Shown here one piece after another: positions 62,002 to 62,061 of a DNA stretch of 64,000 nt (the first letter of the stretch is position 1; each line of letters begins with the position of its first letter). The position numbers and the translations under genes were made by a program. This stretch comes from Oscillospiraceae bacterium (GTDB lineage: Bacteria; Bacillota; Clostridia; Oscillospirales; CAG-272), in contig SVTY01000005.1 of NCBI GenBank assembly GCA_015063535.1, positions 23,808 through 87,807 of the forward strand, given 5' to 3'. Under the pieces are notes generated by a model. It ran no database searches. It saw only the letters and a list, made by a program, of their open reading frames with translations, and was not told the origin of the DNA.

Positions 62002-62061
62002 GTCTGTCTGTCTGTCTGTCTGTCTGTCTGTCTGTCTGTCTGTCTGTCTGTCTGTCTGTCT
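62002..62061. repeat. Perfect tetranucleotide microsatellite (GTCT)15, which is (AGAC)15 on the gene strand
   Basis: Counted base by base: 15 uninterrupted units. Confidence 0.98.

Follow-up and report, generated by a model that had tools for sequence, protein, structure and literature searches.

An (AGAC)n Tract within a Leader Open Reading Frame as a Candidate Attenuation Switch for a Lipoprotein Gene of an Uncultured Oscillospiraceae Bacterium

Repeat-dependent control of transcription through a translated leader has been described for the pilus genes of Streptococcus gallolyticus. In the parts of that study on which we draw (Danne et al. 2014, PMC3894217), the pil1 and pil3 loci carry GCAGA repeats within a short leader open reading frame (ORF), and a premature terminator precedes the pilus genes. 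A leader stop codon at least 28 nt before the terminator results in low expression, while a leader ending just upstream of, within, or past the terminator results in high expression because the ribosome blocks the hairpin; the evidence comes from terminator-deletion, start-codon, and stop-codon mutants (PMC3894217). The pil1 system was functional in Lactococcus lactis as well. Here, we report on a tract of 15 AGAC units upstream of a gene encoding a 1262-aa lipoprotein, located in a 64,000-nt stretch (here, the window) of an Oscillospiraceae genome (GenBank assembly GCA_015063535.1, contig SVTY01000005.1, positions 23,808 to 87,807). As in S. gallolyticus, so far as the cited parts describe it, the repeat unit is not divisible by three, the repeat lies wholly within a short leader ORF that has a ribosome-binding site (RBS) and an ATG, a terminator is located between the leader and a surface-protein gene, and the frame sets whether the leader stop falls before or past this terminator. 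Both organisms are Gram-positive gut bacteria.

Other repeat-containing loci share part of this arrangement. In Moraxella catarrhalis, an AGAT(n) repeat of 6 to 23 units is located 132 bp upstream of the uspA2 ORF (Attia and Hansen 2006, as given in the portions of PMC7302503 and PMC4679880 used here). In Haemophilus influenzae, lipooligosaccharide (LOS) genes contain GACA repeats, and surface-related and restriction-modification genes undergo slipped-strand frame switching (PMC3938747, PMC2651432). GACA is the AGAC unit in rotated form. Our analysis makes it very likely that the tract in the window belongs to a heritable expression switch for the lipoprotein. As to how such a switch might act, we lean toward the tract being the variable part of a leader-peptide attenuator that works through the leader frame and the terminator.

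Leader of the Lipoprotein Gene

The tract reads (GTCT)15 on the plus strand, that is, (AGAC)15 on the minus strand, which is the gene strand, and it is uninterrupted. Tandem Repeats Finder (period 4, 15.0 copies, 100% matches, score 120) and direct reading agree on the 15 perfect units given in an initial annotation of the window. In a search for AGAC-unit 12-mers with at most one mismatch, all 13 matches in the window fell within the tract (0.20 expected from dinucleotide shuffles), and it is therefore the sole such tract in the 64 kb. Among the metagenome contigs, ten show 100% identity to the window; the tract is spanned by seven of these, each with 15 units, and three terminate within it. 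Samples containing the strain are JGI 3300018475, 3300018494, 3300018495, 3300024268-70, and 3300029705 and ENA ERZ27248314, ERZ27248436, and ERZ27248446. Because seven independently assembled contigs span all 15 units, the tract is not an assembly artifact. As the seven are all 100% identical, they represent one strain and carry little information on variability. Nor can the contigs ending inside the tract (3/10) be taken as a sign of heterogeneity, since a period-4 repeat longer than the assembler k-mer breaks de Bruijn graphs anyway. The leader-specific 23-mer TTCTGTAGCTCGCCTYATTTTCG had no matches in our metagenome scan, so that collection yielded no further strains of the locus.

The AGAC repeat contains no stop codon in any of the three frames and codes for TDRQ repeats. 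According to the initial annotation, the tract lay outside any ORF. This stands for the main ORF; the tract is, in contrast, wholly contained in a 29-codon leader ORF preceded by a GAGG motif 9 nt before its ATG (62087-62085) and ending in a TGA (62000-61998). The leader RBS sits just 5' of the -35 element of P1, one of two promoter-like elements, and the ATG lies inside the P1 spacer, so that P1 and the beginning of the leader ORF overlap. The same 29-aa gene was called identically by JGI's gene caller on metagenome contig L006. The initial annotation had overlooked this RBS and start codon, as well as a terminator-like hairpin (T1) directly after the tract and a strong terminator (T2) that begins 54 nt after it. 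Its remaining description of the region was borne out: both P1 and P2, the second promoter-like element, were recovered at the positions proposed (Table 1), and the leader of about 130 nt is followed by the lipoprotein ORF, whose ATG at 61867 is 134 nt from the end of the tract and which starts with MKRKFLSILLVVCMAVSALVGLTAC, a lipoprotein signal (...LVGLTAC).

The minimum-energy and the centroid folds both contain a stable T2, whose predicted free energy is -27.1 kcal/mol. Only about 32 nt separate it from the lipoprotein ATG, and our promoter scan found no promoter in this gap; the lipoprotein gene is therefore reached by read-through of T2. The smaller T1 looks like a weak terminator or a pause site. 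Its loop contains UCUGU, which is complementary to the tract, and it is a variant that our UCUGUC motif test for the class (see below) leaves unscored. The tract begins 5 nt after the -10 element of P1 and 61 nt after that of P2. P1 and P2 are competing candidates for the start site. A transcript started at P1 would be without the leader start codon, and P2 is more likely to be the source of the functional mRNA. The P1 spacer (62087-62075) also includes TGTCGAA, which we take to fit the Spo0A-box consensus TGNCGAA, possibly by coincidence.

We simulated 10 to 21 units in the window leader and recorded the stop positions relative to the tract and T2. With unit numbers of 0 mod 3, for example the 15 units observed, the leader stops 4 nt after the tract and 49 nt before T2; with 1 mod 3 (e.g., 16 units), the corresponding distances are 15 nt and 38 nt. 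With 2 mod 3 (e.g., 14 or 17 units), the leader is extended by 38 additional codons through T1 and T2 and stops 113 nt after the tract, past both hairpins, 60 nt beyond the 5' base of T2 and 21 nt before the lipoprotein ATG.

What we infer from this layout is where transcription starts, that the leader is translated, how efficient T2 is, that this particular locus switches, and what T1 and P1 do. A transcript would start upstream, most likely at P2, and carry the leader RBS and the ATG at 62087, so that ribosomes could translate the short leader ORF across (AGAC)n. Gain or loss of one 4-nt unit by slipped-strand mispairing would then change the frame in which ribosomes exit the tract. At 15 or 16 units, the early stop, 38 to 49 nt before T2, would allow T2 to fold, and most transcripts would end before the lipoprotein gene (low state). 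At 14 or 17 units, the ribosome would run through T1 and T2 and block the T2 hairpin, and transcription would enter the lipoprotein gene (high state). T1 might act like the pause hairpin of a classical attenuator, holding the polymerase until the tract-translating ribosome melts it and stopping transcripts that are not translated. Thus, the observed 15-unit allele is predicted to represent the low state, one unit away from the high state.

The leader is retained in a second lineage. An ortholog (L012, GCA_045613205.1) encodes a lipoprotein with 84% identity and has a different upstream gene, and its leader keeps P2, the RBS, the ATG and frame, P1, the tract, T1, and T2, with a mean column identity of 87%. 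Homology starts about 30 nt upstream of P2, just past the terminator hairpin of the Exo_endo_phos gene that precedes the leader in the window. P2 in L012 is TTGATT-17-TATAAT, the equivalent of TGTCGAA is TGTCAAA, and the tract is (AGAC)12-AAAC-(AGAC)2, that is, 15 units with one interrupted. T2 is conserved in three orthologous leaders with two compensatory pairs, and it is retained in orthologs P0003, P0010, and P0016, whose contigs start just after the tract. Rfam 15 gave no match overlapping the leader even at E-values up to 10, and no matches at the gathering threshold in seven related loci.

Table 1. Features of the lipoprotein-gene leader and its neighbors (window positions)
Feature	Position	Strand	Remarks
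Exo_endo_phos gene, upstream neighbor	62978-62241	-	Pfam assignment
Terminator hairpin of the Exo_endo_phos gene	62189..62218	-	12-pair stem, then T-run; 5' limit of the regulatory cassette
P2, promoter-like TTGATT-17-TATACT	62123..62151	-	9/12 matches; TG before -10; candidate source of the leader-ORF transcript
Leader-ORF RBS, GAGG within GAAAGAGG	62097..62100	-	9 nt 5' of the leader ATG
P1, sigma-A promoter-like TTGACA-18-TATAAT	62067..62096	-	12/12 matches; ends 5 nt before the tract
Leader ORF (uORF), 29 codons + TGA	61998..62087	-	MSKVGYNLL(DRQT)n by translation; whole tract inside
(AGAC)15 tract	62002..62061	-	Tandem Repeats Finder, direct reading, 12-mer scan
T1, small hairpin GUGAGC-AUUCUGUA-GCUCGC, then CUUAUUUUCG	61982..62001	-	Scan and fold; directly 3' of the tract
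T2, strong intrinsic terminator	61899..61948	-	Stem 61948-61903, U-run to about 61899; fold
TAA stop of the long leader frame (units 2 mod 3: 11, 14, 17, 20)	61889..61891	-	Past T2; 10 nt before the main RBS
Lipoprotein-gene RBS, GGAGG	61874..61878	-	Sequence
Lipoprotein gene, 1262 aa	58079..61867	-	Signal peptide, lipobox LTAC

The lipoprotein itself has no Pfam match and no PDB sequence match. An identical protein is recorded in a metagenome-assembled genome (MAG) labeled Ruminococcaceae/Oscillospiraceae, and homologs were found only in Clostridia MAGs and metagenome assemblies, where named sources are Clostridia, Clostridiales, or Ruminococcaceae MAGs; they occupy differing genomic neighborhoods. 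The gene contains a 249-nt tandem duplication (61038-61510, 78% identity) that amounts to a repeated protein module, and several metagenome contigs break at it. Homologs L011, L013, L014-16, and L138 lack the tract. Three of these loci have another structured leader in common (L013:2225-2500, L014:2225-2500, and L138:1225-1500), which is about 250 nt long and has a terminator hairpin downstream of an invariant core, GGCGACAATCGGAGTTTGCGTTTTT. With 12 predicted pairs that show compensatory changes and no Rfam match, this leader may be an undescribed cis-regulatory RNA.

Far from the leader, the window contains a second simple repeat, (TCGCATCC)6.8 (12034-12087, 97% matches), which overlaps the 3' end of a minus-strand ORF (12082-13554, 490 aa), with a shorter (TCTCAT)4.8 repeat nearby (11889-11917). 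The 8-nt unit of the former would likewise shift frames, and this could be another variable locus.

The (AGAC)n Module in Gut Clostridia

A scan for (AGAC)6 in one genome per species returned at least 120 loci, and a metagenome scan for ACAATCTTGAC(AGAC)4 returned at least 117 loci, where most contigs with a named source come from the human gut. All counts given below, including the class counts of the genome scan (n = 95, 75, 30, and 27), refer to the matches listed by these scans. The genome matches come from many gut Clostridia (Lachnospiraceae, Oscillospiraceae, Ruminococcus, Butyrivibrio, Blautia, Peptacetobacter, Extibacter, Christensenella, and others), and some are from Negativicutes and Erysipelotrichaceae. 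Cultured carriers of the module include Extibacter muris DSM 28560 (L135, with a pilin-like gene), Butyrivibrio sp. MC2013 (L017), and Peptacetobacter hominis (L045). Several genomes (CAKRQU01, CAVGEJ01, USBT01, and CAVKYO01) have multiple (AGAC)n loci, while the window itself has one tract. Pairs within single assemblies include L027/L128 (CAKRQU01), L053/L117 (Eubacterium sp. CAG:180), L029/L041 (UMGS1571), and L071/L127 (Acidaminococcus fermentans). The (AGAC)6-7 tracts of Desulfuromonadales and Geobacter (L052, L087, and L124) have another conserved context, followed by ...CCTCCTGACAAATACTGTTGTCAACAATTATTCTGATTGA... and a terminator, and are unrelated to the clostridial module.

The (AGAC)n loci fall into three groups. 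In the first group, to which the window belongs, the tract is part of a leader, and the downstream genes mostly encode large secreted proteins with Big_2, CWB2, BspA-type leucine-rich repeat (LRR_5, with LPXTG), VWA (with SdrD_B), Cna_B, FctA, DUF7601 pilin-like, GLUG, and type IV pilin-like (with N_methyl motif) sequences. In 22 of the 30 loci outside restriction-modification genes, an RBS motif precedes an ATG by 4 to 13 nt, and the frame of this ATG extends into the tract without a stop codon; 1,000 shuffles that kept the -35 and -10 hexamers gave a mean of 3.3 and a maximum of 9. In the initial annotation, gain or loss of units was proposed to alter the length and structure of the leader or a protein- or RNA-binding array. 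This proposal finds no support, and 4-nt changes would instead shift the reading frame of the leader, as they do in classical switches. A strong terminator is located 35 to 85 nt past the tract in most of the secreted-protein loci, and a tract-complementary UCUGUC with a U-rich tail occurs within 32 nt after the tract in 17/30 loci (0.2 expected). A P2-like upstream promoter (at least 10/12 matches) is present in 11/30 loci, compared with 1.4 in shuffles, consistent with P2 producing the translated mRNA.

Frames that provide two outcomes are likewise more common than expected. Both an early-stopping frame (28 nt or more before T2) and a frame ending at, in, or past T2 exist in 24 of 27 leader-type loci (15.0 expected from dinucleotide shuffles of the tract-to-T2 segment; P about 1e-4). 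The thresholds are those of the S. gallolyticus study (PMC3894217), and the T2 starts were curated by hand. In a simpler test of frame versus T2, all 27 loci scored, against 22.1 expected.

In the second group, the tract is near the N terminus of the main ORF, which encodes Acyl_transf_3, GtrII, or possibly MBOAT. As the conserved N-terminal part of the Acyl_transf_3 domain is encoded immediately after the tract, the start codon must be upstream of the tract. In the third group, the tract lies inside restriction-modification genes, namely, hsdS (after a conserved LLTF motif) and two methyltransferase families; these loci look like phase-variable restriction-modification systems. Metagenome loci such as L146, L148, L154, L164, and L196 have tracts inside hsdS (after the central LLTF), a Dcm-like methyltransferase, and another methyltransferase, and in hsdS, in-frame changes of three units would insert TDRQ between the target-recognition domains. 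Enzymes in the cytoplasm or membrane may tolerate a variable, charged N-terminal TDRQ repeat, whereas such a repeat in front of a signal peptide would not be tolerated. This would explain why the switch of secreted proteins is placed in a leader ORF of its own, with a terminator as the link to the gene.

A P1-like element is a recurrent companion of the tract. Of 95 loci selected with the (AGAC)n repeat as the sole criterion, 34 show a promoter match (9/12 or better) that ends 3 to 9 nt upstream of the tract, while the controls gave 3/95 and 3/75, the latter on the antisense side. The usual form in the genome set is TTGACA-17-xAxAAT, where the -10 element is mostly xACAAT. In the metagenome set, 115/117 loci have a P1-like element, and TTGACA or TTGACT is located exactly 17 nt upstream in 95/117, where the search pattern had fixed ACAAT alone. 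The contexts of the element range from leader ORFs and N-terminal coding ends to positions deep within restriction-modification ORFs.

Tract length varies between samples even where the flanks are nearly identical. Unit numbers in clusters with at least 97% identity in the 300-nt flanks were 6, 7, 7, 7, 7, 8, and 11; 4, 5, 6, 6, 8, and 9; 5, 7, 7, 8, 8, and 10; 6, 12, 12, and 13; 7, 11, 13, and 16; 10, 13, and 22; 7, 10, and 14; and 6 and 13. Tracts of this class are hypermutable, with strong variation in clusters from restriction-modification ORFs. The only near-identical pair of leader-type loci consists of two paralogs in one genome, L027 (12 units) and L128 (19 units), with 92% identity between their cassettes. 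The tract in the window had earlier been read as a contingency-type tract tied to a surface protein. This agrees with the recurrence of the module before adhesin and pilin genes and with the length variation of flank-identical tracts in restriction-modification genes.

Weighing the Leader-Frame Switch against Rival Explanations

A number of observations weigh against a switch by leader frame. Downstream of the tract, the longest open frame does not exceed that of dinucleotide shuffles, either in the window (P = 0.57) or in the class (86 nt versus 80 nt in shuffles; Fisher P = 0.93). We have therefore dropped an unusually long read-through frame as an argument, and with frame length unremarkable, the frame argument depends on the stop positions relative to the hand-curated T2 start. 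Frames in assembled genomes favor neither early nor late stops. Unit-number variation was found only inside restriction-modification ORFs, which account for all eight clusters inspected, and no cluster of near-identical strains was found for leader-type loci. At the lipoprotein locus itself, no variation was seen in the one strain (seven contigs, 15 units) or in L012, which also has 15 units, one of them AAAC. P1, with its 12/12 match, plays no part in the model, yet it is the most conserved flank of the tract. Finally, RNA polymerase can outrun ribosomes in Firmicutes, as known from work on Bacillus subtilis, and this would weaken antitermination by a trailing ribosome unless the polymerase pauses.

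P1 has a central part in a different account, put forward in the initial annotation, in which transcription starts from P1 at the first AGAC, the leader is untranslated, and tract length grades the transcript level, stability, or terminator read-through. P1 matches the consensus perfectly and ends 5 nt before the tract, and no feature of (AGAC)n tracts is more consistent than a promoter-like element in this position. The geometry also resembles that of uspA2, where AGAT(n) is located in the 5' untranslated region (UTR) 132 bp upstream of the ORF and grades the mRNA level (as presented in the portions of PMC7302503 and PMC4679880 cited above). However, the tract RNA is predicted to be unpaired, without a structure that competes with T2, and therefore no link from length to read-through is visible. 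Furthermore, the Acyl_transf_3 and GtrII tracts must be translated from a start codon within the P1-like element, so the element cannot serve as the mRNA promoter there, and it also exists deep inside restriction-modification ORFs. An untranslated leader gives no role to the enriched RBS, ATG, and open frame or to the differentiated stop positions. We also considered an untranslated repeat of the uspA2 type, and the window does not appear to contain one, as an in-frame ATG with an RBS reads into a stop-free tract. On balance, we regard an untranslated leader as unlikely.

P1 may nevertheless have a function together with a leader-frame switch. P1 may be a decoy or competing promoter with transcripts ending at T1 or T2, it may cause a sigma-dependent pause and thereby couple the ribosome to the polymerase, or initiation at P1 may raise slippage in the adjoining tract. 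A doubtful but wider proposal is that P1 and the tract form a portable hypermutation and coupling cassette, in which the initiation or pause site either raises slippage (by DNA melting or an R-loop of the purine-rich RNA) or holds the polymerase for the ribosome. If this were true, gut Clostridia would use a promoter-tract cassette to phase-vary adhesins, pili, surface-glycan enzymes, and DNA methyltransferases. P1 bears on whether bacteria build local mutation-rate enhancers into contingency loci.

A neutral microsatellite in an intergenic region, without effect on expression, would be compatible with the 15 units in both lineages available and with the interrupting substitution in the L012 tract, which is like those of decaying repeats. 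However, the tract is unique in 64 kb, and tract and flanks have persisted together in the L012 lineage, where the identity of the lipoprotein has fallen to 84%. The composite architecture recurs in dozens of genomes beside surface-protein genes, and it is orientation specific, with the promoter-like element on the sense side of 34/95 tracts but on the antisense side of only 3/75. Neutrality is thus quite improbable.

Slightly less probable still is an independent small RNA gene or protein-binding array (e.g., a sponge for an A-N-repeat RNA-binding protein) that consists of P1, the tract, and T1/T2 and exerts no cis control on the lipoprotein: a plausible transcript of 85 to 165 nt would result from the consensus promoter, the 60 nt of repeat without structure, and the terminators, and T1-like hairpins with U-tails follow the tract in 17/30 loci, but nothing between T1 and T2 is conserved across loci except the tract, no Rfam family matches, there is no room after T2 for a promoter of the lipoprotein gene's own, the module is tied to the lipoprotein gene in two genomic contexts, and the RBS and ATG would be left unexplained.

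Some further candidates were rejected. In promoter-spacer repeat switches, such as H. influenzae hif and Neisseria porA, the repeat separates the -35 from the -10 element or is located immediately upstream of the -35; such a switch is ruled out here because the tract lies downstream of the -10 elements of both P1 and P2. An antiterminator formed by pairing of the tract with T2 was rejected because the fold leaves the tract unpaired and T2 dominant, and nothing beyond repeat periodicity speaks for a TRAP-, HutP-, CsrA-, or Hfq-like binding array or a Rho loading site.

Comparison with Known Systems

Clostridioides difficile cwpV provides a precedent for a heritable DNA change in a leader that decides whether a leader terminator stops transcription of a cell-wall protein gene. 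The change in cwpV is a site-specific inversion by a recombinase, and unlike the switch proposed for the window, it involves neither repeat slippage nor a leader peptide. In H. influenzae, 7-bp repeats upstream of the hmw1A and hmw2A adhesin ORFs are reported to have graded effects through 5' UTR structure and RNase III (PMC8262952, PMC12721329). As in the window, these repeats are located between the promoter and the start codon, and their effect, like that proposed for the window, is at the level of the transcript or 5' UTR; in contrast to the window, the unit is a heptamer, and the parts of these papers drawn upon report no translated leader as the mechanism.

Among tetranucleotide systems, uspA2 resembles the window in having its tract downstream of a promoter and about 130 nt before the start codon of a surface protein. 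AGAT, unlike AGAC, has a TAG stop in one frame and is described as untranslated, and the effect in uspA2 is graded with length, with no leader ORF or terminator logic reported in the portions of the sources cited above. The clostridial tracts within main ORFs (Acyl_transf_3, GtrII, hsdS, and methyltransferases) appear to switch by frame like the H. influenzae genes, whereas the frame shifted in the window is that of the leader peptide and not that of the regulated protein.

We found no paper that describes AGAC tracts from Clostridia among open-access papers and preprints; in a survey of hsdS repeats, AAGAC is mentioned for Fusobacterium nucleatum only. In the open-access literature that we searched, phase variation in gut Firmicutes is mainly attributed to DNA inversion, and repeat-driven leader-peptide attenuation is described only for the S. 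gallolyticus pili. If our proposal is correct, uncultured Clostridia of the rumen and the human gut would commonly use AGAC leader attenuation for stochastic variation of their adhesins, pilins, and lipoproteins, and differently placed AGAC tracts would provide variation of glycan-modifying enzymes and restriction-modification systems. The on and off states could then be read from metagenomes through the unit count modulo 3, which is relevant to colonization, immune and phage evasion, and the reading of strain-level heterogeneity.

The closest counterpart remains the S. gallolyticus pilus switch, which is proven by mutants, whereas the switch in the window is predicted from sequence. The repeat units differ (GCAGA, 5 nt, versus AGAC, 4 nt), as do the targets, a sortase pilus in S. 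gallolyticus and a lipoprotein of an uncultured Oscillospiraceae/Ruminococcaceae bacterium here. The window has the extra hairpin T1 directly after the tract, and P1 overlaps the start of its leader ORF, whereas the cited parts of the S. gallolyticus study describe one active promoter, upstream of the leader. Thus, the proposed logic is that known from S. gallolyticus, while the AGAC unit, the taxon, the lipoprotein target, and the presence of T1 and P1 appear to be new.

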